A stretch of DNA of 64,000 nucleotides from an uncultured Enterobacteriaceae bacterium (GCA_964524005.1 CAZGBK010000003.1:3155-67154); one strand, 5' to 3'. Shown: positions 39,703 to 63,890, counted from the first letter of the stretch. The notes: generated by a model from the sequence alone, not told the origin. Made by a program: numbers and translations.

Positions 39703-39823
39703 GGCAGGCAGTGCACAAAGGGGAGAGGCGCGATTTTCGCATGTACCGACCTTGCAGGGCGCGCTTGCGAAGCCGCTCTCGCACGGGCTAATGTAGTGAA
39801 ATTCCGACATTTGGCGCATATTC

Positions 39824-43042: not shown

Positions 43043-43045
43043 GGC

Positions 43046-43582: not shown

Positions 43583-43583
43583 C

Positions 43584-45635: not shown

Positions 45636-45644
45636 GGTCGGTCC

Positions 45645-46058: not shown

Positions 46059-46186
46059 GGGTCAGGGGTCTCCTCGAGGACGCGTGCCAGCGCCGCTCCG
46101 CGCAACCGCTGTGCGAGCAGGGCGTCGATGCCAAGCACGGCGAGACCGAGCGAATAACTGATGGCAATGGCAAGCGTGGCAGTCAT
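46055..46186 (-). CDS. ccmD: Haem exporter protein CcmD (43 aa)
   Basis: Small single-TM ORF MTATLAIAISYSLGLAVLGIDALLAQRLRG... between ccmC and ccmE. ATGA overlap with ccmE. Confidence 0.65.
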   Translation of the reverse strand: MTATLAIAISYSLGLAVLGIDALLAQRLRGAALARVLEETPDP

Positions 46187-46215
46187 GGGGTGTCGTGGGG
46201 TGAGATGGACAAGTG

Positions 46216-46953: not shown

Positions 46954-46957
46954 GGTC

Positions 46958-48319
46958 TTATTCTATGGCAAGGTCGAGGACGCGCCGCGCCACTGGGGGC
47001 ACCAGCAGCAGGGCCAACAGGCTGATCCCGGCGAGCACCAGCAGCGGCCCGGTCAGGCTCTGCGCGTCTTGTGCGGCCGACACAGTGGTCACCCCAAACA
47101 CCAATACAGGAACGAACACCGGGAAGCTCATCAGGCTGATCAAGACTTGCGCTTGGCGGGCCATCAGACCGAGTGCGCCAAACAGGACGGTCAACGCTCC
47201 CAACGCCAGGGTGCCGGCGGCCAGCGCCAGTGCCAGTGCGCCGATACCAGCTCCATCTAGGCTGTATTGCATGGCCAGCGGGATGCTGTAGATCGCCATC
47301 GGCAGGCCGAACAACAGCCACTGGGCGAGGATCTTGCCAGCCACCACAGCGGCCAGGGGAAAGCCTGAAGCTTTCAGCTGGGCCAAGATGCCATTGCGAA
47401 AATCGGCCTCGAGGTGTCGGCTGGCCGACAGCAAGGTGACCAGCAGGGCGCTGATCCACACCATGCCGGGCGCGATACGGGCGAGTTGTTGCGGGTCGGT
47501 GCCGACACCAAACGGGATCAGGCTGAGGATCATCCAGTGGAATACGCCGGGCCAGACCAGTTCGCGCGGGGCGGCCATCGCTAGGCGCGTCTCGCGGCGC
47601 AGCGCCCAGAACAGGGGCTGTGCATGCAAGGCGCGGCTAAAACCACCACCTTCCGCCACCGCAGGCGCATGCTCACCGGGCATCGGCTCGCAGCGAGCGC
47701 TGCGACCGCTTAACTCGACGCGTGCGTGGCAGAGCGCTGCCAGGCTTGGATCGAGGTCAGTCAGGTGCCGGTGTGTTGCCACCACAGCGATGCCACCAGC
47801 CTGCAGGTGTTCGCGCAGCAGTTGCAGGAACAGGCGGATGCCGTCGGCGTCGAGCGCATTGACCGGCTCGTCGATCAGCCAGACGCGTCGTTGGCTGTGC
47901 GCCATGGCCGTCAGTACCAGTCGTCGCCGTTGGCCCTCGGACAGCTGCTCGACGCGACGGTGGACCGCGCGCTCTAGGCCCACAGCCCGCAGTGCCAGGG
48001 CCGTATCGCGCGCGGGAAGATGCACCGCTAGGGGCTCGAGCGTGGCAGCGAGCTGCTCGTTGCAGCTAAGTTCGCCCCGCAGGGCCGGGGTCTGTTCAAA
48101 CAGGAAGATCTCGCCGCGGGCCGGCCAGCGCGAGTGGGTCGACAGCCGCGGCTGCAAGTCGGCAATGGTGCGCAGCAGGGTGCTTTTGCCACTGCCGTTG
48201 GGGCCACAAAGTTCGATATAGCGGCCTGCCGGCAGATCAAAGCTCAGAGATTCGGCCAGCGTGGCGTGGCCACGCGTCAGTCGCAGGTCGCGAACCCGCA
48301 GCACGGCGTCGCCGGTCAC
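46958..48319 (-). CDS. ccmA/ccmB: Fused CcmA (ABC ATPase) - CcmB (permease) haem export protein
   Basis: Single 453-aa ORF. N-terminal half has GPNGSGKST, LSEGQRRRL, WLIDEP and VVATH. C-terminal half has the CcmB pattern LIPFGVGTDPQQLARIAPGMVWISALL. No in-frame stop between them (junction read by hand). Confidence 0.8.
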   Translation of the reverse strand: MTGDAVLRVRDLRLTRGHATLAESLSFDLPAGRYIELCGPNGSGKSTLLRTIADLQPRLSTHSRWPARGEIFLFEQTPALRGELSCNEQLAATLEPLAVHLPARDTALALRAVGLERAVHRRVEQLSEGQRRRLVLTAMAHSQRRVWLIDEPVNALDADGIRLFLQLLREHLQAGGIAVVATHRHLTDLDPSLAALCHARVELSGRSARCEPMPGEHAPAVAEGGGFSRALHAQPLFWALRRETRLAMAAPRELVWPGVFHWMILSLIPFGVGTDPQQLARIAPGMVWISALLVTLLSASRHLEADFRNGILAQLKASGFPLAAVVAGKILAQWLLFGLPMAIYSIPLAMQYSLDGAGIGALALALAAGTLALGALTVLFGALGLMARQAQVLISLMSFPVFVPVLVFGVTTVSAAQDAQSLTGPLLVLAGISLLALLLVPPVARRVLDLAIE

Positions 48320-49578
48320 GGCCGTGGTGGGTCGATCTGCAGCAGGACCGCGTCGCCGCCGACGCGCACCGGCGAGCGTTGCACCGACCAGTCGCCCGGC
48401 TGTCGTACTGCATTGCCAGTGAGCGAGACGCGCGCCTCGATGCTGACGTTTGGAAACTTCGAAAGGACCAGCTGCGGCGCCATGGCCTGGCTGTCGTCGA
48501 GTGTGAAATTGACCATCCGGCCGCGCACCAGGTCATCGATCGGCAGGCGAACCACGGCCAACGGCATTGGCGGGCCATCGATCGCCTTGGCGACCACAAA
48601 CAGCACGGCCGTGTCGGGCAAGGCCTGTTTGCGGACGCGCTCGATCGCGGCGGGGCTGAAGGCGACCTGGCCCTGGACAGCTGCCGCCGCTGCCGTGGCG
48701 GACGTCCCGACGTCGGCCTCGGTATCGCCAAGTTCCGCCAGGATACGGCCGATCTGGCCGTAGTCTGGGTCGGTTGGCGGGAACAGTGCGCGCAGGCGCT
48801 TCCACAGGGTGATCGCCGATGCATTGTCGCCGGCCTGCATCGCCGCAGTGGCCGCCAGCGCTAGCGATTTCGGATGGTCGGGCCTGCTGCGCAGGGCCTC
48901 GGCGACCAGCTCCATCGGGCGCCCGGCGAGCGACTCATTGTTCATCATGGCGGTGGCATCGGCGAGGTCAGCCAACAGGTCCGGGTGTCCGGGCGCCAGC
49001 TTCAAGGCCTGCTCCAGGGCGCGGGCGGCGGCTGGATAATCGCGCTGCAGGGCACGCGACCGGGCCAGGATCACCCACCCCTCCAGGTTGTCAGGGCTTT
49101 CGGAGAGTTTCTGCTCGAGCAGGGCGATCCGTTCTTCCAGTGAGCCGTCGCCGGGGTGGTTCTCGCCGGCGCGCGGCGGTGCCGAACGGCTTAGCGTCGA
49201 TGGGACACCAAAGCCTGGTTTGGCAATGTGCATGGCTGGCTCGATGGGGCTGCCGATCCACAGATATGTGCCGACGCCACCGACGATCACCAGCGCCGGC
49301 AGCAACCAGCGTGGCAATGCCACGGACGTTACCGCTGCCGCAGGTTGCGCGATGCGCCCGGCTGCCGCGGCTTGTTCCTGCCACTCGGCGATCAAGGTGG
49401 CGCGCAGCGTCTCGTCGAGGTTGGGGTCAGTCTCGATCTCACGGCGGCGGGCCACCATCACTGCCCACTCGGCTTCGTCGCTGGCTGCAGCAACACTGTG
49501 CGAGGTGCGTAGGGCGCGCAGAAGACACCAGGCCGTCAGGAGCGTGGCCAGCAGAGCAAGGACGAGAAAGGCGAGCAT
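48316..49578 (-). CDS. ccmI: Cytochrome c maturation protein CcmI/CycH (2 TM + TPR)
   Basis: ATG at 49578 gives MLAFLVLALLATLL, a cytoplasmic loop and a second TM, then periplasmic TPR-like repeats. The stop overlaps the ccmA GTG (GTGA). Confidence 0.8.
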   Translation of the reverse strand: MLAFLVLALLATLLTAWCLLRALRTSHSVAAASDEAEWAVMVARRREIETDPNLDETLRATLIAEWQEQAAAAGRIAQPAAAVTSVALPRWLLPALVIVGGVGTYLWIGSPIEPAMHIAKPGFGVPSTLSRSAPPRAGENHPGDGSLEERIALLEQKLSESPDNLEGWVILARSRALQRDYPAAARALEQALKLAPGHPDLLADLADATAMMNNESLAGRPMELVAEALRSRPDHPKSLALAATAAMQAGDNASAITLWKRLRALFPPTDPDYGQIGRILAELGDTEADVGTSATAAAAAVQGQVAFSPAAIERVRKQALPDTAVLFVVAKAIDGPPMPLAVVRLPIDDLVRGRMVNFTLDDSQAMAPQLVLSKFPNVSIEARVSLTGNAVRQPGDWSVQRSPVRVGGDAVLLQIDPPRP

Positions 49579-49819
49579 GACAGGTGGGTTGTGCAATCAG
49601 CCCGACACTCTAGGCATTCGTCTCGACGATGTCCAACGCAGCGGACGGGCATGGATTTCCGGGCCATCGACGAGCGTCCGGACAATAAATTTCGGTCAAA
49701 GGGTTTAAAACCCGTTCGTAGAATGGATACACTTTGCAACAGACCGACGCGGGGGGGCGTCGGTTCACCGGTCGACCTGGCCGGTCCAATAAACGATCAG
49801 ACCGCGGGACGTCCAGGGG

Positions 49820-50635
49820 ATGACGCAAGAAAACGTTCTGACGTTGCACGGGTTCCGGTATTTCCGCTGGAGCCTGCTGCTTTCAGTGGCGGCCATCGTT
49901 GCCTATCTGCTGGATGATCCGCCGGTGGCACCCTACGGCGGTACCTGGCTGGGTTACACGCTGGGCACAGTCGGCGCACTCATCATCGTCTGGTTGATCT
50001 TGTTCGGCGCCCGCAAGCGCGCCTATCGGTCGAACCTGGGCTCGCTGCGAGGGTGGTTGTCGGCGCATATCTGGCTGGGCATCGCCCTGCTGGTGATCGG
50101 GACGCTGCACACCGGATTCCAGTTCGGCTGGAACATCCACACCATCGCTTACATCCTGATGTTGCTGGTCATCTTCAGTGGCATCTGGGGTGTGACAGTG
50201 TATTTGCGGAATCCGGCGTTGCTGAGCGAGATGATCGGCGGCAAATCGCTGCAGCAACACGGCGTGGTGCTGGCCGAACTCGATGCCGAGTCGCGCAACC
50301 TGGCACAAAAACTCGGCCCCGACGTGCAACAGCTGATCGAGGCATCGGCGCGCGCGCCCATCGTCAGCGGCGTGTTCGGTCGCTTTGCGGCGCCGGCAAG
50401 CTGCGCCACCGCCAATGCTGTGACGCAGCTGCAGCAGATCGGACTGTCCGGCGACAAGGCGATCCGCAACCTTTACGCCGTGCAAGTGCGCCGGCAACAG
50501 CAGCTCGAGCGTATCCGAGGCTTTTTGCGGCTGAAGGCGTGGACCGACCTCTGGCTGCTGATCCACGTTCCGGTGTCGATTGGCTTGTTGGCCACGCTCA
50601 CGGCGCACATCGTCTCTGTCTTCTTCTATTGGTGA
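49820..50635 (+). CDS. Five-TM membrane protein with two H-x13-H helices (putative di-haem b-type cytochrome)
   Basis: 271 aa. TM3 is AHIWLGIALLVIGTLHTG and the last TM is IHVPVSIGLLATLTAHIV, each with His pairs 14 positions apart. A soluble loop of about 110 aa lies between TM4 and TM5. Confidence 0.6.
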   Translation: MTQENVLTLHGFRYFRWSLLLSVAAIVAYLLDDPPVAPYGGTWLGYTLGTVGALIIVWLILFGARKRAYRSNLGSLRGWLSAHIWLGIALLVIGTLHTGFQFGWNIHTIAYILMLLVIFSGIWGVTVYLRNPALLSEMIGGKSLQQHGVVLAELDAESRNLAQKLGPDVQQLIEASARAPIVSGVFGRFAAPASCATANAVTQLQQIGLSGDKAIRNLYAVQVRRQQQLERIRGFLRLKAWTDLWLLIHVPVSIGLLATLTAHIVSVFFYW

Positions 50636-50641
50636 TCGATC

Positions 50642-52210
50642 ATGAGCGGCCCGACCCCTGAAGACCCGCTCAGCCAGGAGATCCGCGGCTTGCAGCGCCC
50701 GCTGCCGGGCCGCCGATTGGTGTCCTGGCTGCTGTTCCTGGTGGCATTGACAGCCTTCTTGCTGTTGCCGGTCGGTGCCGCATTGTTCAACGATGACCAG
50801 GGCGGCATGCGCGACTGGCCACTGATCGGCGCCATGTTCGGCGACGCTGACAGAGTCGATGCCCAGCTTCTCGGCCGTCGTCCTGACCCATCGGTCAAGC
50901 CCGACTTCATCCCTCGCGATGCCCAGGGGGTGTTCGCGCTGGCCGACTTGACCGGCTATCAAGCCACACCGCCCACCTTGATGGCCTTGGACCGATGGTG
51001 GAACCCGGGTCCCCTGGCAGCGGCCCACCAGCCTTGGGCGAACGACTGTCGTGCCTGCCACGCTGCGCCGTTTGGTCGCGTGCGTGACGAAGACTGTCTG
51101 GCTTGTCACAAGGTCTTGGGCGACCATGTCGACTTCACCCAAGTCAAAGATGCGCGGCTCGAGGTGCGATGTGCCAGCTGCCACCGCGATCACAAGGGTG
51201 AGTTTGCGCTGGCGGCGCAGAACAAGCATGCGGTGGGCCGTGACTGCGCCGACTGCCACCGGGACATCAAGGCGAGCTACGCCGATACCCAGACCGAGAA
51301 CGTCCGCGACTTTGTTGACGAGCACCCACAGTTCCGTGTGCAGGTGGCCAGCGACGCGGCTGGCAAGGTGCTGCAACGTGTGCGTCTGCCGACGAATGGT
51401 CTGCTGTCCCAGCCAACCAACTTGAAGTTCCCCCACGACGTCCACATGTCGGACAAGGGCGTCGGCAGCCCGAATGGCAAGGTCGTGATGAAGTGCGCCG
51501 ACTGCCATGAAGCCAACGGCGACGGCATCGGCTTCCGGCCGACCACCATGCAGGACCATTGCCAGAGCTGCCACGCATTGAAAATGGAGCCGACGCTGTC
51601 GAATCGCGAGGTTCCGCATGGCCCGGTGGACGACGTGCTCAGCACCCTGCGCGAGTTCTACAGCTTCGTCGCCACCACCGGCAGCGTGCCGCGCGGGCCC
51701 GAGCCGCTCACCCGCAACATCGTCATCAAGCGTCCGGGTGAGCCGGAACGTGCGCCACGCAGCTTCGTGTCGATGCCAGGCGACGGCAAGGCGCGGGCGA
51801 CTGCCGCGGCGATCGAGATGTTCGAGAAGACCTCCTGCGTGATCTGCCACGAGGTCAAGCGCGTACCCGGCCCGGGCAAAGCCGGCACCCCGGGGCGCGA
51901 CCTGCCGCAGTGGGAGATCGCGGCAGTGGCGCCAGACCACGCCTGGATGCCGAAGTCGACCTTTACCCACGCCTCGCACAGCGCCGCGACCTGCGAGAGC
52001 TGCCACGCTGCGAGCAAGTCGAAAGAAGCGACCGAGGTGCTGATGCCCGGAATCGACGGCTGCCGCGACTGCCACGCCGGAACCAAGCCGGTGGCCGACA
52101 AGATCGTCTCGGACTGCGCTCTGTGCCACGGCTTCCACATGCCTGGTCATACGCCGCCGCAGCCGCCGGCCAAGGGGTATCAGCTGCTCTCGGGTAGGGC
52201 GCAGCGATGA
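50642..52210 (+). CDS. Membrane-anchored decahaem c-type cytochrome
   Basis: 522 aa. N-terminal anchor LVSWLLFLVALTAFLLLPVGAALF. Ten CXXCH motifs: CRACH, CLACH, CASCH, CADCH, CADCH, CQSCH, CVICH, CESCH, CRDCH, CALCH. Confidence 0.85.
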   Translation: MSGPTPEDPLSQEIRGLQRPLPGRRLVSWLLFLVALTAFLLLPVGAALFNDDQGGMRDWPLIGAMFGDADRVDAQLLGRRPDPSVKPDFIPRDAQGVFALADLTGYQATPPTLMALDRWWNPGPLAAAHQPWANDCRACHAAPFGRVRDEDCLACHKVLGDHVDFTQVKDARLEVRCASCHRDHKGEFALAAQNKHAVGRDCADCHRDIKASYADTQTENVRDFVDEHPQFRVQVASDAAGKVLQRVRLPTNGLLSQPTNLKFPHDVHMSDKGVGSPNGKVVMKCADCHEANGDGIGFRPTTMQDHCQSCHALKMEPTLSNREVPHGPVDDVLSTLREFYSFVATTGSVPRGPEPLTRNIVIKRPGEPERAPRSFVSMPGDGKARATAAAIEMFEKTSCVICHEVKRVPGPGKAGTPGRDLPQWEIAAVAPDHAWMPKSTFTHASHSAATCESCHAASKSKEATEVLMPGIDGCRDCHAGTKPVADKIVSDCALCHGFHMPGHTPPQPPAKGYQLLSGRAQR

Positions 52211-54060
52211 TTCGTCGGTTGGGCAATGCGCTGTTTGGCTTCTCTGGTGCACTGATCGCGGCATTGGCGGCGACGCCGGCGCTCGCGAAGAAGCCCTTCT
52301 GCCACCCGGTCAGCGATCAGCCGCAGGCGCTCACCGTGGAAGATGTCGAGGCCATCGTCGGTCGAACAGCCACGGTGGCTAACCGTCTGGGCCAGGCCGA
52401 TACCACCATCGCTGTCGTCGATCGTGTCGGTAATGTGTTGGCGGTGTTCCAGACCGGCGAGGACCACCCGGTGCGGATTCGCAGTGGCCTGGTCGGCAAC
52501 CGTGCCCTTGGGTTAGAGAATTTCGAGGTGCCGTCGGCGACGTTGGCGGCCATTGCCAAGGCAGTCACCGGAGCCTACCTGTCGTCGTCGGGGAACGCGT
52601 TCAGTACTCGCACGGCCAGTTTCATCGTGCAGAAGAACTTCATCCCGACGCTCAATAACTTTCCTTCGGGGCCCCTGTATGGCGTGCAGTTCAGCCAGCT
52701 GCCATGCGGCGATTTCGTGCAGAAGGGTGACGTGCCCGGTGTCGGGCCGCGCCGCTCGCCCTTGGGCCTGTCGGCCGATCCGGGCGGCTTCCCGCTGTAC
52801 AAGAACGGTCGCGTCGTCGGGGGTATCGGCGTCGTTGTCAGGGGCAGCGACTACTCGCTCGACCTCGACCCCCGCAACAGTGATGCCGATGTCGAAGAGA
52901 TCATTGCCGAGGCCGGTTCTTTGAGCTACGCGGCACCAAAGTGCATCCGCGGCGAGCGCATCACCGCCGGCGGTTTCAACTTCCGTTATTCCGATGCTAC
53001 GCGTCGTTTGCCGCGCAACCCGGGTGTCGAAGGCTTCAGCGGCCGCTATGTGGCGGTGGGCGGCTTCAAGGCCGATCCAGCGCCGATCGCCGGTCTGGCC
53101 TACGGCGATGCCGCTTCCGGCTACATGCTTCAGGCGGCTGGGCCCTTCGCCTCGCGGCGCGGTATGGTACTGGTCGACGCGGCTGGCAATAACCGCCACG
53201 CGCCGCGCGACTCCCTGCTGCCAGCCACCGCTGGCGGCGGTTTGAGCGATGTCGAAGTGACCACCCTGTTGCAGCAGGCGCTCGGGGTTGCCAATCAGGC
53301 GCGCGCGCAGATCCGCCGGCCCCTCAATGTCCCGGCCGAGGTCACCATTTCGGTGGTCGATGCAGCCGGCAACCTGCTGGGCATGGTCCGCACCCCGGAT
53401 GCGCCGGTGTTCGGCACCGACGTCTCGCTGCAAAAGGCGCGCACGGCAGCGTTCTTTTCTCGCAGCGATGCCGCCGCGGACTTGGTAGACCTGGGTATGG
53501 GCCGCTACGTCTCGGCTTCCGAGGCATTCTTCGGCGCCAACGCGTTCGCCGATGGCACTGCCTTTACCGCGCGCGCCATCGGCAATGTTGCGCGGCCACA
53601 TTTCCCCGACGGTATCTCGGGCAAAGCGGAGGGCCCCCTCTCGGTGCCGATCAGCGACTGGAGCCCATTCAACGTGGGTCTGCAGCTCGACCTGGTCGCC
53701 GGGCAGATCGTTCCGTCGCTGTTCGGTGATGTGAACGCGTGTACGGCAATGCCGGTGGGCATCGACAACGGTATCCAGATCTTCCCTGGTGCGGTACCGA
53801 TCTACCGCGACGGCGTGGTGATCGGGGGCATCGGCATCTCGGGCGACGGCGTCGATCAGGATGACATGATCGCTGCGTTGGGCCTGGAGCGCGCTCGACA
53901 GGCGCTGGCGGCATCCGGCAACAGCAATCCGCCCGGTCATGCGCCGCGAGGGCAGCGTTCGGACAACGTCGCGGTGCCGGGCCCCGGTTCGCTGCGCTAC
54001 GTGCAGTGTCCGCAAACCCCGTTCGTCAGTAGCAAGGCACAGAATGTCTGTCAGTTCTAG
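52207..54060 (+). CDS. Secreted protein with two GlcG/HbpS-like (haem-degrading / DUF336-type) domains
   Basis: Signal peptide ...AALAATPALA|KK. Two copies of the pattern TIAVVDRVGNVLAVF...GGFPLYKNGRVVGGIGVV and TISVVDAAGNLLGMVRTPDAP...SLQKARTAAFF...FPGAVPIYRDGVVIGGIGISGDGVDQDD. ATGA overlap with the upstream gene. Confidence 0.65.
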   Translation: MIRRLGNALFGFSGALIAALAATPALAKKPFCHPVSDQPQALTVEDVEAIVGRTATVANRLGQADTTIAVVDRVGNVLAVFQTGEDHPVRIRSGLVGNRALGLENFEVPSATLAAIAKAVTGAYLSSSGNAFSTRTASFIVQKNFIPTLNNFPSGPLYGVQFSQLPCGDFVQKGDVPGVGPRRSPLGLSADPGGFPLYKNGRVVGGIGVVVRGSDYSLDLDPRNSDADVEEIIAEAGSLSYAAPKCIRGERITAGGFNFRYSDATRRLPRNPGVEGFSGRYVAVGGFKADPAPIAGLAYGDAASGYMLQAAGPFASRRGMVLVDAAGNNRHAPRDSLLPATAGGGLSDVEVTTLLQQALGVANQARAQIRRPLNVPAEVTISVVDAAGNLLGMVRTPDAPVFGTDVSLQKARTAAFFSRSDAAADLVDLGMGRYVSASEAFFGANAFADGTAFTARAIGNVARPHFPDGISGKAEGPLSVPISDWSPFNVGLQLDLVAGQIVPSLFGDVNACTAMPVGIDNGIQIFPGAVPIYRDGVVIGGIGISGDGVDQDDMIAALGLERARQALAASGNSNPPGHAPRGQRSDNVAVPGPGSLRYVQCPQTPFVSSKAQNVCQF

Positions 54061-56170
54061 GACCTTCCGCTCGCTGCGGGTCGGCCCAGGGCTGTTGCCG
54101 CTGGCACTCGCGCTGTGGCTGCAGCCTGCATTTGCGGCGCCCGAGCCACAGCCGCCGCGTGACCCCAACGACCACAATCCGACCTACGTCGGCCGCAAGG
54201 CGGTGGCGCAAGTGCAGGTGGTTGCGGCATCGGTGCTGCTGCGTGCCGAACCCGATGCCGAGGCCTTGGCGGTGGGGCGGGTCGATCGAGGGCAGCTGCT
54301 GACAGTGCTCGAGCAGCGTGGCGACTGGTTCCGCGTTCGCGTTGCCAGCGCCCCTGAAGAGCGTTCGGCCTGGTTGCTGCGCGAACCGGCCGAGTACGGC
54401 GAGTGGAGTGTGGACCTGCTCTACGCCGCTGGCGAGACCGGCTTCGCCCGCGAGGCGATCGGTGCCGCCGAGGGTGAATTGCCAGCGCTGGACGAAGCCC
54501 GGCCGGCGGTGCCCAGCCGCGTGGTCACATTGCCGCCGCTCGACCCCGATCAGCTGCCGCCGCCGCAAGCCAACCTCCCGCGCGAGTCGGTGCCCATTCC
54601 GGACCGCTGGCGACTGATGCAGGCGCTGGGGTTCAAATTCCCCTGGTACGACCCTTATAACCAGAATGTACTGAAGGGCGATCTGCCGGTGCTGGCGATC
54701 GGCAAGGACTGGTTCTTCAACTTCACCGGCATTTCGGACAGCTTGTTCGAGATACGCTCGACGCCGCTACCGGTGTCGCAGGCCATCGCCTTTCGGCCCA
54801 ACAGCAACAACATCTATGGTGATTACGACCAGCGTATCTTTGGCCAGAACCTGATCTTCAACGTCTCGCTGACCAAGGGCAACACCACCTACCGGCCGCC
54901 CGATTGGGAGTTCCGGCTGGTGCCCGTGATCAACTATGTCAACGCCCGCGTCGACGAGGCCGGGATCCTGCGCATCAACCCGCAGGAGGGCCTGACCCGC
55001 GAGACCAGTTTCATCGGTATCCAGGAGGGGTTTGTCGACTACCACCTGCGGAACGTGTCCGATCGCTACGACTTCGACTCGATCCGCGTCGGCATCCAGC
55101 CATTTATCAGTGATTTCCGCGGTTTCGTGTTCCAAGACACGCAGTTTGGCGTGCGCTTGTTCGGCAACCGCCACAACAACGTCTACCAGTACAACCTGGC
55201 GTGGTTCCGGCGGATCGAGAAGGACATCAATAGCGGTCTGAACGACATCGGCAAGCCGCTGCGCGACGACGACATCTTCGTCGCCAACCTGTATCGGCAG
55301 GACTTTCCGATCACCGGCCTGACCACTCAGGGCACGGTGATCCACAACCGCAACCGCGAGACCGACTTCTTCTACGACCGCAACGGCTTTGTGCAACGGC
55401 CGGCGCTGCTTGGCGAGGCGCGGCCGCGAGAATACGACGTGACGTACCTGGGCCTGACGTTCGACGGCCACTTCGGCATGGTCTACCCCGATTGGCGGCT
55501 GAATATCAGCAGCTCGACCTACTTTGCTGTTGGCCGCGACCGCAACAGTCCGCTGGCTGAGCGTCCCAACGACATCCGCGCCTTCTTCCATGCCACCGAG
55601 CTGTCGCGCGACTTCAGTTGGGTCCGGCTGCGTGGGAATTTCCTGTACGCCAGCGGCGACCGCGATCCTTATGACGGGAAGGCCACAGGCTTTGACGCCA
55701 TCTTCGAGAACCCGCAGTTCGCCGGGGCTGATACCAGCTACTTCATCCGCCAGGGCATCCCGCTGATCGGCGGGGGCCTGGTCACGCTGTCGGGGCGGAA
55801 CGGGATCCTGCCGTCGCTGCGGTCAAGCAAGGAGCAGGGCCAGTCGAACTTCGTCAACCCGGGGCTGCTGCTGATCGGCGCTGGGGCCGACTTCGACGTC
55901 AGACCCGAGCTGCGGCTAACCACCAACATCTCGTACCTGCGTTTCAATGAGACCGCCGTGTTGGGTGCTTTGCGCAACGAGCGCAAGCCTGGGCGGGACC
56001 TTGGCATCGACTTCTCGGTTGGCGCGCAGTGGCGCCCGTTCTTCAACCAGAACGTGATCATCAACGGCTCTTTGTCGGTGCTGAAGTTGGGCGACGGCCT
56101 GAAAGACCTCTACGGTGATCGCAACGACCCGTTCTACTCCGGAATCATCAACGCCATCTTGACCTTCTGA
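54044..56170 (+). CDS. Outer-membrane beta-barrel protein with N-terminal SH3b-like domain
   Basis: ATG at 54044 gives the signal peptide MSVSSRTFRSLRVGPGLLPLALALWLQPAFA|AP. SH3-like segment VLLRAEPDAEALAVGRVDRGQLLTVLEQRGDWFRVRV. About 560 aa with alternating aromatic/polar beta-strand character. C-terminal ...INAILTF. Confidence 0.65.
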   Translation: MSVSSRTFRSLRVGPGLLPLALALWLQPAFAAPEPQPPRDPNDHNPTYVGRKAVAQVQVVAASVLLRAEPDAEALAVGRVDRGQLLTVLEQRGDWFRVRVASAPEERSAWLLREPAEYGEWSVDLLYAAGETGFAREAIGAAEGELPALDEARPAVPSRVVTLPPLDPDQLPPPQANLPRESVPIPDRWRLMQALGFKFPWYDPYNQNVLKGDLPVLAIGKDWFFNFTGISDSLFEIRSTPLPVSQAIAFRPNSNNIYGDYDQRIFGQNLIFNVSLTKGNTTYRPPDWEFRLVPVINYVNARVDEAGILRINPQEGLTRETSFIGIQEGFVDYHLRNVSDRYDFDSIRVGIQPFISDFRGFVFQDTQFGVRLFGNRHNNVYQYNLAWFRRIEKDINSGLNDIGKPLRDDDIFVANLYRQDFPITGLTTQGTVIHNRNRETDFFYDRNGFVQRPALLGEARPREYDVTYLGLTFDGHFGMVYPDWRLNISSSTYFAVGRDRNSPLAERPNDIRAFFHATELSRDFSWVRLRGNFLYASGDRDPYDGKATGFDAIFENPQFAGADTSYFIRQGIPLIGGGLVTLSGRNGILPSLRSSKEQGQSNFVNPGLLLIGAGADFDVRPELRLTTNISYLRFNETAVLGALRNERKPGRDLGIDFSVGAQWRPFFNQNVIINGSLSVLKLGDGLKDLYGDRNDPFYSGIINAILTF

Positions 56171-56172
56171 CG

Positions 56173-59100
56173 ATGTCCCAGCCCAGCCCAACCTCTGCCC
56201 CCGTTCACCCTGTCACGCGTCGTGCCGCGACCTGGGCGCGCTGGTGCGCGCTGGCAGTGGTCGCCATTGCCGCTCCTCTGCTGTTGACCGGTGGCGGCGA
56301 ACCGGCGACTGCCGCCGAGGCCAAGCTGGTCAAGCGCGACTACGTGATGGCGCCGCCGGCGCCCAAGGCGCAGACCTGGGAAGAGGCCAAGGTCAAGACC
56401 GACGGCTGCATGAGCTGCCACACCGAGACCGACGCCCACACCATGCACGCCAACCCAGGTGTGGTGCTGGGCTGTACCGACTGCCACGGTGGCAATGCTG
56501 ACGTCTGGCGGGCAAAGTCGGGCCCCGAGGCCGAGCCGACCCACCCGGCCTACATCGAGGCGATGAACAGTGCCCACATCCTGCCGCGCAACCCCAAGCT
56601 GTGGAAGAACGCCGCCAATCCTGCCGGCACCTACGCCCACCTGAACAAGGAACATCCGGCCTTCGTGCGTTTCATCAACCCGGGGGATCTGCGGGTTGCG
56701 CGCGATGCCTGTGGGGCGTGTCACCTACCGATCATCCAGGCGCAGGAACGCAGCCTGATGAGCACCTCGTCGATGCTGTGGGGCGGTGCGGCGTACAACA
56801 ACGGCATCTTGCCGTTCAAGCGCTACATGCTGGGCGAGGCTTACACCCAGGACGGTACCGCCGCGGCGATCGTCAACCCGGTGAAGCCCGACGAAGACCT
56901 GTTCGTCTTCAAGGGGGTGCTGGAGAAGCTCTACCCGCTGCCGGCGTGGGAGACCATTCCGCCGGGCGACGTGTTTCGCGTGTTCGAGCGTGGCGGACGG
57001 GTGATCAACAGTATCTTCCCCGAGGTCGGCCTACCCAACAGCACCGGCATCCTGCAGCGTCTGGATGAGCCGGGACGTCCCGACATCAAGCAGAGCAACC
57101 GCGGTCCGGGGACCGGCAACCGCATCTCGGTACCGGTGATCAACTTGACCAAGACGCGCCTGAACGACCCGCATTTGTGGTTTTTGGGTACCAACGACAA
57201 CCCAGGCGATTATCGCTCCTCGGGCTGCACCGCCTGCCACGTGGTCTACGCCAACGACCGCCAGCCAGGCCACAGCGGGCCGTATGCGCAGTTCGGCAAC
57301 ATGGGCCGCACGCAGACGGTCGACCCGACGATCCCCAAGGATCGCTCTGGCCATCCGCTGCAGCACGTGTTCACGCGGGCCATCCCCAGTAGCCAGTGCA
57401 TGGTCTGCCACATGCACCAGCCGAACATCTACGTGAACTCGTTCTACGGCTACCTGCAGTACGACTACGAGCCAGACGCACCGCGTATGTTCCCGGCCAA
57501 GCAGCACTACCCGAGCGACGCCGAGATCCGCGAGATCAACCTGCGCAACCCGGAAGAGGCGGTGATCCGCGGCAATTGGCGTGACCCGGCGTTCCTGAAC
57601 GACCTCTGGCTGAAGAACGACCAGATGAAGGACACCCAGTTCGCCGACTATCACGGCCACGGTTGGGTGTTCCGCGCTGTCCACAAGCGCAACCGCAAGG
57701 GCGCGCTGCTCGACAAGGACAACAACATCGTCGCCGACGACGATCCGGACAAGTTCAAGAAGGCGGTGCATCTGTCGTCGATCCACCTCGACCTCGGCAT
57801 GCACTGCGTCGACTGCCACTTCTCGCAGGACATGCACGGCAACGGCCACATCTACGGCGAAGTGGCGGCTGCGATCGAGATCGACTGCGCCGACTGCCAT
57901 GGCACCGCCAAGGCCTATCCGACGCTGCACACCAGTGGCCCGGCAGCTCGCCCCGGCGGCATGGACCTCACCCTGCTGAAGACCGCCGACGGTCGCAAGC
58001 GCTTCGAGTGGATCGACGGCGTGCTGTATCAGCGTTCGTCGCTCGACCCGAAGCTGGAATGGAAGATGTCGCTGGTGCGGGATTCTGTGAATCCCGATCA
58101 TCCCGAGTACAACGCCAAGGCCGCGCGCGCCAAGCTGATGGCAGCAGGCGAGGAGGGGCGTCAAGGCAAGTGGGGGCCAGGCGTCGAGAACTTGGCGCAC
58201 GACAACGATCGTATGCTCTGCTTCACCTGCCACCTGAGCTGGACCACCAGCTGCGCTGGCTGTCACCTGCCGATCCAGGCCAACTGGAAGACCGAGCGCA
58301 ACCACTTCGAGGGTGGAGAGACGCGTAACTACGCCACCTACAACGTCCAGGTGGTGCGCGAGGACATGTTCCAGCTGGGCATCCATGGTCCAGTCAAGAA
58401 CAGCCGCATCGCACCGTTCCGTTCGAGCTCGGCGCTGGTGCTTTCGTCGCAGAACAGCAACCGCGAACGTATCTACTACCAGCAGCCACCGATCGCCGCG
58501 AGCGGCTTTTCGAGCCAGGCCTTTGCCCCGCATTACCCGCACACCGAGCGCAAGGAAGAGACCAAGACCTGCACCGACTGCCATGTGTCGCGGGACAACG
58601 ACAACAACGCGATCATGGCGCAGCTGCTGTTGCAGGGCACCAACTTCGTCAACTTCGTCGGCCGCTACGCCTGGTTAGGTTCAGAGAAGCATGTCGAGTC
58701 GGTGGGTGTGACCGAATGGGATGAGCCGCAGGCGGTGATCGGCTCGTACCTGCAGAAGTACGTCTACCCAGACTGGTATGCCGAGCACCAGAAACACGGT
58801 CGCGAGATCGTCGACATGCCGCACCGCGAGGCCGCCACACACATTCGTGCCCCGGACGCGGCCCAGTGCCTGCAGATGCGTGGCGAATACCTGTTTGTGG
58901 CCGAGGGCAAGGGCGGTTTCCGTGTCTATGACATTGCCGGTAACGGCAACAAAGGCGTGAGCCAGCGCATCATCCGCGCGCCGTTCTCGCCGTTGGGCCA
59001 CGATGCGCACGTGCCGTCGAAGAATGCCACCTGCGTCGCCCTGCCGACCAACCAGCCCATCGCGCCGACCCGCAACCAGGGCGACCTGATGCGCAAGACC

Positions 59101-60045
59101 AACATGGAGCAGCCGTTCCACCCGATCTACCACTACGCGTTTGTAGTCGACGCCGACGAGGGGCTGATCGTCGTCAATGTCGATACCTTTGCCGACGGCG
59201 AGGCGCGCAACAACTTCCTCAAGCGCGCAGCCACCTGGAATCCGGGCGGCGTCTTGAAGGGTGCTCGGCACATCGTGGTGGCGGGGCACTACGCCTATAT
59301 CACGACGCCCAAGGGCCTGGAGATCATCGACCTCGATGACCCGCTGGCACCCAAGCCGTTCGCGTCGATCCCGCTGAACGATGCGCGTGCCAGCGCGGTG
59401 CAGTTCCGCTACGTGTATGTGACCACTGGCGAGGGCCTGCAGGTGGTCGACATCACCGACATGAAGCCGCGTCTGTTGCCAGCAGTGGTCCCGCTGAAGG
59501 ACGCGCGCCGCGTCTACCTGGCTCGCACCTACGCCTATGTCGCTGCCGGCGCCGAGGGCCTGGCGATTGTCGATATCGAGAAGGCCGACGCGCCACGGCT
59601 GCACCAGATGTACACCGCCGATGGCCGCATCAATGACGCACAGGACGTGATCGTCGGTAGCACCAATGCCTCGTTGTTCGCCTATGTGGCCGACGGCCGT
59701 AACGGCCTGAAGGTGCTGCAGCTGACTTCGCCCGAGATCCAGCCCAAGTTCTACGGCTTCTCACCGGAACCGAAGCCAGAATTGATCGCCACGCGCAAAA
59801 CCAAGTCGCGCGCGATCGCGCTGTCGAAGGGCCTCGATCGCGACCGTGCGGTGGACGAGACCGGTGGACAGATCGCCATCATCGGGCGGATCGGCGCGCG
59901 GCCGTTCAACCGCAAAGAGATGGACAAGCTGTATCTGAATCCGCAGGGCGAACTGTGGACGGTGACCGACCGCGTCGACACCTCCGCTTTCGTTCCGCGG
60001 CGCAGGCCGGCCGATCTGGCCAGTGACAAGCGAGGCAAGCCATGA
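56173..60045 (+). CDS. 1290-aa decahaem c-type cytochrome fused to an LVIVD-repeat beta-propeller-like C-terminal domain
   Basis: Ten CXXCH motifs between nt 56407 and 58583: CMSCH, CTDCH, CGACH, CTACH, CMVCH, CVDCH, CADCH, CFTCH, CAGCH, CTDCH. Then six G-[LF]-x-[IV]-[IVL]-[DNQ] repeats: [48 protein letters not shown]. Confidence 0.8.
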
Positions 60046-61433
60046 GGCACGTGTTGACAAGGGTGGCTGGCGAGGTCCGGCGCGTTGTTAGAGAGAGCGG
60101 TTGTGTTCTGGCAAGCCGGGTGCTGGCGGCATGGCTGCTCGCCGCAGGTGCCAGCATGGCAACGGCGGCGCCGCTGATGCCGCATCTGTCGCCGCACAAG
60201 ACCGAAGGCACGGTGAACTGCGCGAGCAGCACCTGCCACGGCTCGGTCACCCCCTGGGATGGCAGCAACGTGCTGCAGAACGAGTACACCACGTGGACGC
60301 GCATGGACAAGCACACCACGGCCTACCGGGTGTTGCTGAACGACGAATCCAAGCGCATCGCCAAGAACCTCGGTCTGACCGAGGGCGCGCACAAGGCCAA
60401 GATCTGCCTGGATTGCCATGCCCACAACCCCAGTGGCCCGGTCGGCGAGCGTTTCGTGCAGAGCGAAGGCATCGGTTGCGAGGGCTGTCATGGCCCGTCG
60501 GGCAAGTGGATCGGCCCGCACACGGTCGAGGGCCGCACTCACGCGCAGAACGTCGCCGATGGCCTGTACCCGACCGCCAACCCCACCGCCCAGGCGCGGC
60601 TGTGCCTGTCGTGTCACTTTGGTGACGAGTCGCGCTTCGTCACACACCGCATCATGGGCGCCGGTCACCCGCGGATCTCGTTCGAGATCAAGACCTTCAC
60701 CGCGATCCAGCCGCAGCACTGGAAGGTCGACGCCGATTACATCCAGCGCAAGGGCAGCTACGATCCGCTGCGCGTCTGGGCCATCGGCCAGGCGATCGCC
60801 GCGCAGCAGATCCTCGATGTCATCGCTGACCCGAAGCGTCGCGACGGCCTGTTCCCGGAACTGGTCGCCTTCGACTGCCACGCCTGCCACCACGCCATGA
60901 GCGACAAGCGCTGGAATGCCCGCCTGGGCACTGGTCCTGGGGTGGTGCGGGTGAATGACAGCAACCTGCTGATGCTGCGGGCGATCGTCCGTGCTACCGA
61001 CCCATCCGCCTCGGCGGCATTCGACGCGCAGGTCAAGGCCATGCATCTGGCGGTATCGACGGGCAAGAAGCCGGCCGGCAAGACCGAGCTCGACATGGTG
61101 CGCGAACTGTCGGCGAGTATCGGCGCGATGTTGCCCAAGCTGGAAAAGACGAGCTTCCCGCCGGCAACCATGCGCCAGGTGCTGCTGGCGTTGATCGACG
61201 AGTCGCGTGAGTCGAGTTATTCGGACTACGCCGGTGCCGAGCAGGCCTACATGGCGATCACCAATGTCGCCAATAGCCTGATCCAGTCGGGCACGCTGAC
61301 GCTCAACCCGCAGCTGCGCAGCGGCATGGCCGACCTTCTGAAGAGTCTGGCCAACGACGAGCGCTACAAGCCGGATGCTTTCGCCAACCAGTTGCTGGCC
61401 TTGCGTGGCGTGGTTGCCGCGCAGGCACGCTAG
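60042..61433 (+). CDS. Periplasmic multihaem c-type cytochrome (4 CXXCH + 1 CX4CH)
   Basis: 463 aa. Signal-like RVLAAWLLAAGASMATAAP. Motifs CASSTCH, CLDCH, CEGCH, CLSCH, CHACH. ATGA overlap with the upstream gene. Confidence 0.75.
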   Translation: MRHVLTRVAGEVRRVVRESGCVLASRVLAAWLLAAGASMATAAPLMPHLSPHKTEGTVNCASSTCHGSVTPWDGSNVLQNEYTTWTRMDKHTTAYRVLLNDESKRIAKNLGLTEGAHKAKICLDCHAHNPSGPVGERFVQSEGIGCEGCHGPSGKWIGPHTVEGRTHAQNVADGLYPTANPTAQARLCLSCHFGDESRFVTHRIMGAGHPRISFEIKTFTAIQPQHWKVDADYIQRKGSYDPLRVWAIGQAIAAQQILDVIADPKRRDGLFPELVAFDCHACHHAMSDKRWNARLGTGPGVVRVNDSNLLMLRAIVRATDPSASAAFDAQVKAMHLAVSTGKKPAGKTELDMVRELSASIGAMLPKLEKTSFPPATMRQVLLALIDESRESSYSDYAGAEQAYMAITNVANSLIQSGTLTLNPQLRSGMADLLKSLANDERYKPDAFANQLLALRGVVAAQAR

Positions 61434-61457
61434 ATCACGTCAGGGCAGGGAACCACC

Positions 61458-63890
61458 ATGGGCATGATGTTCGCCGAGGTCGACGCCGAATACGACATTG
61501 TCATCGTCGGTTCGGGGCCGGCTGGTCTGTCGGCCGCGTCGCGCGCGCAAGAGCGCGGCAACCGCTACGTGCTGCTCGAGGCTGAAGACCACGCATCCGA
61601 CACCATCTACAAGTACCAAAAGGGCAAGCATGTGATGGCCGAGCCGGGCTTCTTGCCCCTGCGTTCGGGCATGAAGTTCGCCGAGGGCAAGCGCGAGGGC
61701 ATCCTTGGCGAGTGGGACGATGCGCTGAAGGGCCAAGGCATCAATATCGCCTACAAGAAGAAGGTCAGCGGCATTCAGCGCGACCCGAAGACCGGCCAGT
61801 TCACCATCAGCTGCGAAGACGGCAGCACCTACACCAGCCGTACGGTGATCCTTGGCATCGGCTTGCAGGGCAACATCCGCAAGCTTGGCGTGCCGGGCGA
61901 AAACCTGCCGCGGGTGCAATACACCCTGTCGGACCCGGACGAGTTCAAGGACGAGGTCATTGTTGTGGTCGGTGCCGGCGACGCCGGTATCGAGAATGCC
62001 TGCGCCTTGGCCAAGCAGAACCAGCTGCACCTGATGAACCGCGACGTCGAGTTCACGGTGTGTAAAGACGGCAACAAGAACCTGGCGCTGGCGACGGAAA
62101 AGTCCGGAAAGATGACCATCTGGCACTCGGCGTTCGCCGTGCGGGTGGAAGAGACTGGTGCCGAACCGCCGCTGAACTACGTCTTCAACAGTAAAGACGG
62201 CGAGGTGAGCATCCCCTGCCATCGCGTGGTCGCCCGTTGCGGGGCGATCCCCCCGCGCAAGCTGGTGGAGAGCTTCGGGATCGAGTTCCCCAACCCGAAC
62301 CCGACCTCCATTCCGGTGCTGTCCGAGACCTACGAGTCGAACGTGCCGGGCTTGTTCGTGGTCGGCGCGCTGGGCGGTTACCCGCTGATCAAGCAGGCGA
62401 TGAACCAGGGCTACGAGGTGGTCGAGACGATCAACGGCGAGGTCGTCGAGCCGGTCGACGAGCCGCTGATCCGCGAGCGCCTGCAGAGCTGGAAGCCGAA
62501 CGCCAACGTCGGCGAGCTGATCGACAGCCTGCGGGCGATGTCGCCGTTCTTCGGTGCGATGTCGAAGCTGCAGATGCGCGAGATCCTGCTCGAATCGAAT
62601 GTCCGTGTGCTGCGCGAAGGCGACACCGTTTACAAGAAGGGCGACTACACCGCCAGCTTCTTCTCGATCGCCGAGGGCAGTGTGCAGGTGCAGGTGGGTG
62701 AGGCAGAGGGCTCGATCACGCTCGAGGCCGGCCGCTTCTTTGGCGAGATGAGTCTGCTCTCGGGCCGCCGAACCACTGCCACCGTGCTCGCCGGGCGCGG
62801 CTGCGTGCTGATCGAGACGCCGCGACGCACCATGCTCAAGCTCATCGCATCGTCGGATGAAGTCAGCAAGCAGATCGACAACGCCTTTGTTCGCAACGCC
62901 ATCATCAGCTATATCGGGCCGATGATGACTCCGGCAGCGATCGATGCGCTGCTCGAGGGCGGCGTTCAGCTGAAGCGCTTCAACGCCAAGCAGGTGGTGT
63001 TCAATGCCGGTGACGATCCGGACGGTTTGTACCTGATCCGTCGCGGTTCCGTCGAGGTGAGTATCCAGTCCGGTGGGCGCAAGGAGGTGCTGGGCGTGGT
63101 ACCGGCTGGCGGCTATGTCGGCGAGATGGCGCTGGTTGACGACGCCAAGCGCATGGCGACGGTGACCGCAACCGTGCTGACCGAGGCGCTGGTGTTCGAC
63201 GGTGCCCGCTTCAAGGCCGAGATCGATCGCAACTCACAGCTGCGCGAAGCCCTGCAGGCGATGATCCTCGAGCGCACCCGCAAGAACGTGGCGAAGAGCG
63301 AGAAGTCGTCCAGCGGGTCGTTCATGCAGCAGTTCTTGCTAGCGCAGGGGGTGGGCGAGGCGACCAATATCCTGGTGATCGACGAGACCAAATGCGTGCA
63401 GTGCAACAACTGCGAGATCGCCTGTGCCGAGACGCATGACGGTGTCTCGCGGCTGCGCCGCGATGTCGGCCCGACGCTGAACCACGTGCACATCCCGGTG
63501 GCCTGCCGCCACTGCGAGAACCCGCACTGCATGAAGGACTGTCCGCCGAATGCGATCAGCCGGCAGGCGAACGGCGCGGTGTTCATCGCCGACACCTGCA
63601 TCGGCTGCGGCAACTGCGAGCGCAACTGCCCCTATGGCGTGATCTCGCTGGCGCCGCAGAAGCCGCCCAAGTTCGGCGCCGGCTGGATGTGGCTGCTGTT
63701 CGGCATCGGCTCGCCGCCGGGGCAGCGTGCCCCGGATTACGATCCGGATGCGCGTAAGCAGGCGGTCAAGTGCGACCTTTGCGCGTCGGTGAAGGGTGGG
63801 CCGCGCTGCGTGAACGCCTGTCCGACCGGGGCCGCGATCCGCATGGCACCCGAGACGCTGCTGCAGCGGGTCGAGTCGGGAAGCCTGTAG
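61458..63890 (+). CDS. FAD/NAD(P)-dependent oxidoreductase fused to two cNMP-binding domains and a four-cluster [4Fe-4S] ferredoxin domain
   Basis: 810 aa with no signal peptide. DIVIVGSGPAGLSAA and VIVVVGAGDAGIENA Rossmann motifs. FFGEMSLLSGRRTTATV and YVGEMALVDDAKRMATV cNMP motifs. CVQCNNCEIAC, CRHCENPHCMKDCP, CIGCGNCERNCP, CDLC...CVNACP. Confidence 0.8.
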   Translation: MGMMFAEVDAEYDIVIVGSGPAGLSAASRAQERGNRYVLLEAEDHASDTIYKYQKGKHVMAEPGFLPLRSGMKFAEGKREGILGEWDDALKGQGINIAYKKKVSGIQRDPKTGQFTISCEDGSTYTSRTVILGIGLQGNIRKLGVPGENLPRVQYTLSDPDEFKDEVIVVVGAGDAGIENACALAKQNQLHLMNRDVEFTVCKDGNKNLALATEKSGKMTIWHSAFAVRVEETGAEPPLNYVFNSKDGEVSIPCHRVVARCGAIPPRKLVESFGIEFPNPNPTSIPVLSETYESNVPGLFVVGALGGYPLIKQAMNQGYEVVETINGEVVEPVDEPLIRERLQSWKPNANVGELIDSLRAMSPFFGAMSKLQMREILLESNVRVLREGDTVYKKGDYTASFFSIAEGSVQVQVGEAEGSITLEAGRFFGEMSLLSGRRTTATVLAGRGCVLIETPRRTMLKLIASSDEVSKQIDNAFVRNAIISYIGPMMTPAAIDALLEGGVQLKRFNAKQVVFNAGDDPDGLYLIRRGSVEVSIQSGGRKEVLGVVPAGGYVGEMALVDDAKRMATVTATVLTEALVFDGARFKAEIDRNSQLREALQAMILERTRKNVAKSEKSSSGSFMQQFLLAQGVGEATNILVIDETKCVQCNNCEIACAETHDGVSRLRRDVGPTLNHVHIPVACRHCENPHCMKDCPPNAISRQANGAVFIADTCIGCGNCERNCPYGVISLAPQKPPKFGAGWMWLLFGIGSPPGQRAPDYDPDARKQAVKCDLCASVKGGPRCVNACPTGAAIRMAPETLLQRVESGSL

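Follow-up and report, generated by a model that had tools for sequence, protein, structure and literature searches.

A conserved seven-gene multihaem cytochrome operon of Proteobacteria as a candidate gated electron exporter

The DNA stretch GCA_964524005.1 CAZGBK010000003.1:3155-67154 (64,000 nucleotides, hereafter the window) carries on its plus strand, at 49820-63890, a genuine and strongly conserved seven-gene operon, g1 to g7, whose products include multihaem c-type cytochromes, one of them fused to a beta-propeller, an outer-membrane beta-barrel, an inner-membrane protein and a cytoplasmic flavin and iron-sulphur (FeS) protein. The arrangement is not a product of chance, because the gene order recurs in nearly all related loci with enough flanking sequence and the haem counts agree in almost all complete copies. 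The operon may encode an electron exporter that resembles NADPH oxidases (NOX), is gated by a cyclic nucleotide monophosphate (cNMP) and feeds a terminal reductase in the periplasm or at the outer membrane, the substrate of which would pass through the barrel; this reading is given about an even chance of being right.

In the proposed mechanism, g7 would oxidise NAD(P)H in the cytoplasm at a FAD domain of the thioredoxin reductase (TrxR) type and pass the electrons along four [4Fe-4S] clusters, with two cyclic-nucleotide-binding domains as the gate. If the predicted cofactors are loaded and the carriers act in the presumed order, g1 would convey the electrons through the inner membrane on two b-haems, as in ferric reductases and NADPH oxidases, and the anchored decahaem cytochrome g2, then the soluble pentahaem cytochrome g6, would relay them through the periplasm to g5, the putative terminal enzyme, which would reduce a substrate. 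The channel protein g4, with a periplasmic SH3 domain for docking, would pass the substrate or the product through the outer membrane, g3 would be an accessory protein that binds haem or a small ligand, and the adjacent cytochrome c maturation (Ccm) operon would mature the 25 c-haems. The outward direction is favoured because NAD(P)H is a strong low-potential reductant and because the inside-negative membrane potential should favour electron export and oppose import. Export would spend both reductant and proton-motive force, and tight control by the cNMP-binding domains and by neighbouring cyclases is therefore plausible.

The seven open reading frames (ORFs) are tightly packed: g1 (49820-50635) ends 6 nt before g2 (50642-52210), which shares an ATGA overlap with g3 (52207-54060); g3 overlaps g4 (54044-56170) by 17 nt; g4 ends 2 nt before g5 (56173-60045); g5 and g6 (60042-61433) again share an ATGA overlap; and 24 nt separate g6 from g7 (61458-63890), the last gene of the cluster. 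These ORFs and junctions are exactly those given by an earlier reading made from the DNA alone (the sequence-only reading), and the parts list, compartment assignments and operon structure that it proposed are correct. Terminator-like sites inside the g1-g7 block did not rise above shuffled expectation. The claimed inventory of about 25 c-haem motifs and two b-haem motifs also agrees with the count, which gives 24 CxxCH motifs and one conserved Cx4CH motif (ten in g2, ten in g5 and 4+1 in g6) together with two WX3HX13H motifs, both in g1.

The co-occurrence and order of the seven families are conserved across related loci, as a gene-neighbourhood check confirmed. Loci with enough flank retain the order g1-g2-g3-g4-g5-g6-g7, and a second arrangement, g7-g1-g2-g3-g4-g5, is found in Alphaproteobacteria and some Gammaproteobacteria; g7 lies directly upstream of g1 in 11 alpha- and gammaproteobacterial loci and in a Sphingobium sub-operon, g7-g1-g2. 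In Sphingobium herbicidovorans (locus L086, pMSHV 801035-817324, on a conjugative replicon of ~1 Mb) g6-g3-g4-g5 and g7-g1-g2 stand as separate, convergent sub-operons, which indicates that the inner and outer modules are separable. Haem counts of 10 for g2, 10 for g5 and 4+1 for g6 are found in nearly all complete copies across the loci. An in-frame fusion of g5 and g6 in one metagenome-assembled genome (MAG; L041 3555-8700) was rejected, as a frameshift near the end of g5 marks it as an assembly error or a pseudogene.

The cluster is widespread. A scan of one genome per species, with a g4 relative as the marker, identified the marker in at least 594 species genomes. Relatives of g5 number more than 8000 at cluster level, and the best 120 are all at least 69% identical and carry only the annotations 'hypothetical', 'LVIVD repeat-containing' or 'multiheme c-type cytochrome'; relatives of g4 follow the same pattern. 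The closest relatives of the cluster are in MAGs of freshwater Betaproteobacteria, and carriers include Burkholderiales, Usitatibacteraceae, Methylophilaceae and Ferrovum among the Betaproteobacteria; Lysobacteraceae, Moraxellaceae, Halieaceae and Granulosicoccaceae among the Gammaproteobacteria; and Ferrovibrio, lake and ocean MAGs, and Sphingobium chromids of ~1 Mb among the Alphaproteobacteria. Cultivable carrier genera include Janthinobacterium, Duganella, Undibacterium, Limnobacter and Sphingobium. The small ORFs that flank the Ferrovibrio cluster gave no informative match, and a plasmid search with g1 for relatives of related cluster types (PCC4 and Ptd, described below) returned Sphingobium orthologues only.

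The g5 protein (1290 aa) consists of a decahaem cytochrome c at residues ~50-830 fused to an LVIVD beta-propeller at residues ~830-1220, with ten CxxCH motifs and an LVIVD Pfam match at E 1.7e-17. Across 57 sequences from Alpha-, Beta- and Gammaproteobacteria, 418 of the 1290 residues are at least 97% identical, including 16 invariant His beyond those of the CxxCH motifs, and g5 is 61-77% identical across the three classes, compared with 30-50% for g1 and g2. This extreme conservation, the high residue-per-haem ratio (~83 aa per haem) and the fused propeller suggest that g5 is better suited to the role of a terminal enzyme than to that of a wire. In an AlphaFold2 (AF2) model of residues 49-1245, the predicted local distance difference test (pLDDT) score is ~90 in the propeller and 20-60 in the haem part, and a comparison of the haem domain with NrfA, OTR, HAO and T. 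tepidum c552 was dropped as the haem model was unusable. The propeller fold matches generic, mostly seven-bladed propellers, among them BtuG, AztD, cd1 nitrite reductase (NiR) and NirN, at template-modelling scores of ~0.4-0.6. As in cd1 NiR, NirN and quinohaemoprotein dehydrogenases, c-haem domains would feed a beta-propeller; g5 differs from these enzymes in having ten haems rather than one, and no evidence of a d1-haem, PQQ or metal site was found in it. Searches with g5 found no match to the NrfA family and no sequence relative in the PDB, and the window's copy has no lipobox. In full-length relatives at greater distance (41-52% identity) the number of haems is 8-10; several of the distant relatives (among P0245, P0247, P0254, P0258 and P0252) have signal peptides of the lipoprotein type, and one has 28 CxxCH motifs, with an N-terminal extension of ~18 haems fused to the conserved core.

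The outer-membrane protein g4 (708 aa) has a signal peptide, an SH3-like domain, a linker, a beta-barrel and a C-terminal Phe; a longer ORF from 53939 is available, and homologues favour the start at 54044. Pfam identifies SH3_3, and an AF2 model built on a 50-sequence alignment (pLDDT 70) contains, at residues 54-128, an SH3-like beta domain, followed by a disordered linker and, at 223-707, 18 long strands. The barrel proposed for 54044-56170 in the sequence-only reading is thus predicted here by AF2 and Foldseek, with ~18 strands. A 70-residue internal loop (537-607) is modelled with low confidence, yet ranks with the best-conserved regions of g4. The best Foldseek match is AlgE (E 9e-16, template-modelling score 0.71-0.74 on the target, at 11-14% identity), followed by OccD/OccK, MOMP, chitoporin and ScrY, all of which are 18-strand substrate channels; MtrB was not among the top matches. 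Sequence searches gave no Alginate_exp or MtrB_PioB Pfam match and no PDB relative, and g4 has no CxxCH motif, unlike the fused cytochrome-porin Cyc2. In its model the barrel looks like a substrate channel of ~18 strands, not a cytochrome sheath; its predicted fold resembles that of AlgE, OprD and Occ channels, and g4 differs from AlgE and Occ by its N-terminal SH3 domain and its conserved internal loop.

These features bear on a classical porin-cytochrome conduit, in which g4 would sheathe a multihaem cytochrome, g5 would sit on the cell surface and electrons would be exchanged across the outer membrane with minerals, humics or electrodes. In gene content the operon is like porin-cytochrome clusters, and the papers on PCC4 (PMC5566968) and Ptd (bioRxiv 10.1101/2023.11.21.568154) both propose a conduit; MAGs of Ferrovum, Ferrovibrio and Rhodoferax are among the carriers, propellers of the LVIVD and 'choice-of-anchor B' kinds are typically found at the cell surface, and some distant g5 relatives have, like MtrC, lipoprotein signals. 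As in MtrCAB, PioAB and MtoAB, multihaem cytochromes, two of them decahaem, are encoded beside an outer-membrane beta-barrel. However, the ~18 AlgE-like strands of g4 contrast with the 26 strands of MtrB, and no MtrB_PioB, MtrA/DmsE or MtrC family match rose above its cut-off: the MtrA/DmsE profile TIGR03508 scored 37.4 bits against a cut-off of 192, and the MtrC/OmcA profile PF22113 scored 19.5 against 30. Electrons do not enter at the inner membrane through a CymA-type quinol dehydrogenase, and most carriers with a name are heterotrophic aerobes that are not known to respire metals. The sequence-only reading had proposed a trans-envelope conduit; the parts and compartments of that proposal stand, and the electron path across the outer membrane is only putative because the barrel models with 18 AlgE/OprD-like strands, g5 in the window has no lipobox and the cluster has no secretion genes. 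A conduit of this kind is considered unlikely. The cluster also differs from PCC3, whose multihaem cytochromes are of low complexity, rich in repeats and carry ~21 (periplasmic) and ~34 (extracellular) haems, where the present cytochromes carry 10, 10 and 5 and hardly vary.

The inner module consists of g1, g2 and g7. The g1 protein (271 aa) has five transmembrane helices (TM1 to TM5), with WX3HX13H motifs at residue 79 on TM3 and at residue 245 on TM5 and an SGXXG motif at residue 120 on TM4. The WX3HX13H pair is kept in 52 of 53 homologues, and the four motif His are invariant among homologues. The His pairs 83/249 and 97/263 lie at opposite ends of TM3/TM5, and therefore one haem would sit near each membrane face; a cytoplasmic loop of ~110 aa between TM4 and TM5 could be a docking site for g7. 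No Pfam family matched g1, even at E = 10, and the ferric reductase domain (FRD) profile PF01794 was unmatched; likewise, no PDB entry matched, and a profile of 16 homologues found no NOX, STEAP or other FRD-type structure. The g2 protein (522 aa) is a decahaem cytochrome c that faces the periplasm from an N-terminal transmembrane anchor, its single such segment (residues 23-51), with ten CxxCH motifs and Cytochrome_C7/c3 Pfam matches. Ten His and one Met are conserved as further ligand candidates, which is consistent with bis-ligated wire haems, and all complete homologues except one have ten haems.

The third member of the module, g7 (810 aa), has neither a signal peptide nor a transmembrane segment and is made up of a FAD/NAD(P)H domain, two cNMP-binding domains and then a four-[4Fe-4S] domain, matching the Pyr_redox, cNMP_binding (twice) and Fer4 families of Pfam. 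The FAD/NAD(P)H domain resembles TrxR and has two GxGxxG motifs but not the CxxC of TrxR, and the HycB/DmsB-like FeS domain has four CxxCx(2-12)Cx3C motifs, the Cys clusters of which are kept in all 45 of 45 homologues. Solved relatives differ by segment: TrxR, YpdA and TrxR-type FNR; the tandem cyclic-nucleotide-binding domains of PKA and PKG; and four-cluster proteins of the HycB type. The presence of an NAD(P)H/FAD domain with four FeS motifs in a protein that lacks an export signal supports the exporter reading. The likeness to NADPH oxidases, ferric reductases and MsrQ lies in the two HX13H pairs on two transmembrane helices, with one haem per face, and in the cytoplasmic flavin/NAD(P)H donor. 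The module differs from these carriers in that g1 has no sequence match to the FRD family or to solved NOX or STEAP structures and has five rather than six transmembrane helices, with only the geometry of the bis-His motifs in common, in that the dehydrogenase is a separate protein, g7, to which four FeS clusters and two cNMP domains are added, and in that the acceptor is a multihaem chain.

The core logic of the cluster has already been published, as PCC4 and as ptd, and the cluster is therefore best described as a variant of a predicted kind and not as a wholly new parts list. He et al. (2017) recognise the inner-membrane protein (IMP) of PCC3 and PCC4 by five transmembrane helices, of which TM3 and TM5 bear WX3HX13H and TM4 bears SGXXG (PMC5566968); g1 shows all three of these defining features. 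A PCC4 cluster combines a porin and the membrane protein with tetra-, penta- and decahaem cytochromes of the periplasm and other redox proteins; one subgroup has a Fe-S gene immediately upstream of the gene for the membrane protein, domain organisations are subgroup-specific, and the clusters are found in iron oxidisers and in Hyphomicrobium (PMC5566968). Supplementary Table 6 of the same paper lists porin-less Gallionella triplets of a multihaem cytochrome (~550 aa, 9 haems), an IMP (~308 aa) and a redox protein (~800 aa), which fit g2, g1 and g7 in size only and so support an autonomous inner module (PMC5566968). The ptdABCDEFG cluster of Elbon et al., also identified in silico, was named independently and is seemingly of the same kind as PCC4; PtdA is a NrfA-like pentahaem cytochrome with a beta-sandwich, PtdB a porin, PtdC a FAD/NAD(P) oxidoreductase, PtdD a tetrahaem cytochrome, PtdF a ferric-reductase-like membrane protein and PtdG a decahaem cytochrome (bioRxiv 10.1101/2023.11.21.568154).

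Matched by published descriptions, domains and motifs, the two clusters agree part for part: g7 would correspond to PtdC and PtdE in one fused protein, g6 to PtdD, g1 to PtdF and to the IMP of PCC3 and PCC4, as a putative di-haem-b transmembrane electron carrier, and g2 to PtdG, and both clusters have an outer-membrane barrel. The cytoplasmic FAD/NAD(P) oxidoreductase and the cNMP-binding/4Fe-4S modules are thus present in both, here fused in g7, as are a periplasmic tetrahaem cytochrome (g6, with four CxxCH and one Cx4CH) and a decahaem cytochrome (g2). A further likeness is that, in some variants, the FeS gene immediately precedes that of the membrane protein. The differences are the decahaem-LVIVD-propeller protein g5 of 1290 aa in place of the NrfA-like pentahaem PtdA, the extra tandem HbpS-like protein g3, the fusion of flavin, cNMP and FeS modules, the linked Ccm operon, and the carriers, which here belong mainly to Beta-, Gamma- and Alphaproteobacteria of fresh water and soil and for Ptd to marine lineages.

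The earlier claim that the operon matches no characterised system holds in that g1, g4 and g5 have no PDB relatives and curated-family scores fall far below their cut-offs, and fails in that its core was foreseen in silico as PCC4/Ptd. Homology with synteny to a characterised complex was not found, PCC4 and Ptd being in-silico clusters as well. Sequence and profile searches of g1, g2, g4, g5 and g6 against the PDB returned nothing or generic and weak haem-motif matches, and NCBIfam matches to Geobacter ExtM/N/O, DmsE, QrcA and others were rejected as short haem-motif matches far below the cut-offs. In the literature on LVIVD, HbpS or propellers with multihaem cytochromes, no description of this gene combination was found, and the LVIVD-decahaem protein g5 and the tandem HbpS-like protein g3 appear, from these searches, to be undescribed; the uet cluster of Tenderiales, described in the only paper found to contain both 'LVIVD' and 'multiheme', was set aside as a different system, its LVIVD protein being separate and haem-free.

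The likeness to PCC4 raises the opposite direction of flow, which He et al. modelled for PCC4 (PMC5566968): an external or periplasmic donor such as Fe(II) or Mn(II) would be oxidised at g5 or g4, and the electrons would pass through g6, g2 and g1 to quinones, or through g7 to NAD(P)+. Iron oxidisers and Hyphomicrobium, as carriers of PCC4, and the Ferrovum and Ferrovibrio MAGs that carry the present cluster are in keeping with such uptake. Fe(II) oxidation by way of a small barrel has a precedent in Cyc2. However, every locus with enough flank encodes the cytoplasmic NAD(P)H/FAD and FeS protein, and the reduction of NAD(P)+ by donors at the Fe(II)/Mn(II) level would be strongly uphill against the membrane potential; no evidence of a quinone site was found in the cluster, and the carriers are mostly heterotrophs. 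Inward uptake is accordingly regarded as very improbable.

The remaining members are periplasmic or secreted. The g6 protein (463 aa) is a c554-like cytochrome with a C-terminal helical domain that matches Cytochrome_C554 (PF13435) in Pfam and, weakly, cytochrome c554 (1bvb) in the PDB. Residues 60-66 form a non-canonical Cx4CH motif that is present in all 42 aligned homologues, suggesting that g6 is probably a pentahaem cytochrome; maturation of this unusual site might be one reason for the linked Ccm system. Like g2, g6 has enough conserved His and Met for relay haems that are all six-coordinate and bis-ligated. The g3 protein (617 aa) has a signal-like N-terminus and two HbpS/GlcG (DUF336)-like domains, with PF03928 matched in two stretches; its nearest solved relatives are EfgA, the C-terminal domain of PduO and an extracellular haem-binding protein, and the Sphingobium orthologue is named 'heme-binding protein' by the Prokaryotic Genome Annotation Pipeline (PGAP).

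The nature of g3 leads to a special case of the exporter reading, in which the substrate is a soluble stress compound: electrons would reduce peroxide, an N-oxide, hydroxylamine or aldehyde-derived species in the periplasm, with g3 as the sensor of a ligand or of haem and the cNMP domains as the switch. Members of the HbpS family include a haem sensor of redox stress and EfgA, which senses formaldehyde, the cNMP domains would provide regulation, the cluster occurs in aerobes, including a phototroph, and the terminal cytochrome of Ptd clusters is a NrfA-type pentahaem protein (bioRxiv 10.1101/2023.11.21.568154). A dedicated outer-membrane channel would nevertheless be unusual for small neutral molecules, and the signature of a catalytic haem was not identified in g5; a role in stress or detoxification is held to be improbable.

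Several observations weigh against a gated exporter with g5 as its terminal enzyme. All members are known from sequence and models alone. In g5 the propeller alone is informative, the haem domain being modelled at the low pLDDT given above; no open-coordination or catalytic haem was identified, and the invariant His suffice for ten bis-His haems. LVIVD and 'choice-of-anchor B' propellers being typical of cell-surface proteins, and lipoprotein signals being present in some distant relatives, a surface location of g5 is still tenable, and with it true extracellular electron transfer, although as part of a conduit this is thought unlikely. The di-haem assignment of g1 is drawn from its motifs, because no FRD, cytochrome b561 or NOX profile matched, and g1 could instead donate electrons to quinones or accept them from quinones, in line with the proposal of He et al., leaving g7 in another role. 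The barrel model of g4 is moderately confident, with residues 537-607 not modelled.

Multihaem cytochrome systems have usually been studied in metal-respiring anaerobes. The present system, with 25 haems, its own haem-attachment machinery and a predicted cytoplasmic entry point that oxidises NAD(P)H, is wired by FeS clusters and senses cyclic nucleotides, is found with near-identical composition in at least 594 species, mostly aerobic Alpha-, Beta- and Gammaproteobacteria. Tentatively, and with less than even likelihood, it may be a hitherto unrecognised machine of the respiratory type, common in aerobic Proteobacteria of fresh water and soil, that exports electrons from NAD(P)H under a cNMP switch; g5 would represent a new class of terminal oxidoreductase, and an environmental oxidant would enter by the outer-membrane channel; candidate oxidants include chelated Fe(III)/Mn(III), humic quinones, and O2, which would be reduced to extracellular superoxide. 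If the operon does export electrons to an environmental oxidant, it would explain at the molecular level how ordinary aerobic heterotrophs and aerobic phototrophs carry out reductive chemistry outside the cell. The g5 protein is conserved as core catalytic proteins are and has no solved or characterised relative. Finding its substrate would define a new enzyme family and would test whether NOX-like export feeding cytochrome chains exists in bacteria. Work on the cluster would also clarify the related marine Ptd/PCC4 clusters, which are highly transcribed in oxygen-deficient zones. The wide distribution of the cluster, its self-sufficiency through the Ccm operon and its occurrence in cultivable, genetically tractable hosts make it a good experimental target.

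Directly upstream of g1, and divergent from it, lies a minus-strand operon for cytochrome c maturation by System I (42629-49596), in which Pfam identifies ccmI/cycH (48316-49596), a ccmA-B fusion (46958-48319), ccmC (46216-46953), ccmE (45645-46058) and ccmF (43584-45635), and the WCAAC and LRCxxC motifs of the translations identify ccmG (43046-43582) and ccmH (42629-43042), respectively. A ccm operon adjoins the cluster in most betaproteobacterial and several gammaproteobacterial loci, and the copy in the window would belong to the same unit as g1-g7, as a dedicated maturation system. The divergent ccmI-g1 intergenic region (49597-49819) probably holds both promoters; one promoter-like site was found there, on the minus strand (49635-49607). 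The g1 leader has a 7-bp GC-rich hairpin at 49743-49768, read from the sequence as CCGACGC-GGGGGG-GCGTCGG, and matched no riboswitch or other RNA family in Rfam.

Beyond the ccm operon, Pfam identifies a GAF-GAF-PAS adenylate/guanylate cyclase gene (40267-42624, plus strand). At least eight other loci have a cyclase gene beside the cluster, most often of the CHASE2 type, and genes for FecR-domain and ShlB/two-partner-secretion (TPS) proteins also recur beside it in several lineages; loci noted for neighbouring cyclase, FecR or ShlB genes are L002/L003 (17806-23924), L018, L019, L021, L025, L052, L059, L050, L083, L008 and L086. The recurrence of cyclase genes hints at a cNMP signalling input to g7, and the neighbouring cyclase is tentatively taken as a possible source of the cyclic nucleotide that g7 senses.

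A photosynthesis gene cluster (1218-33171) fills the first 33 kb of the window, with pufL, pufM, pufC, carotenoid genes, genes for ppsR-like and B12-binding regulators, bchN/B/H/L, two pucC/lhaA genes, an acsF-like cyclase gene and dxs, which points to an aerobic anoxygenic phototroph of the Betaproteobacteria as the probable host. A functional tie of the operon to this cluster was dropped as the operon is unchanged in non-phototrophs. Between the photosynthesis cluster and the adenylate/guanylate cyclase gene lie a tRNA-Met gene (37637-37712, plus strand) and a gene for an NADH:flavin oxidoreductase of the Old Yellow Enzyme family (38617-40080, minus strand).

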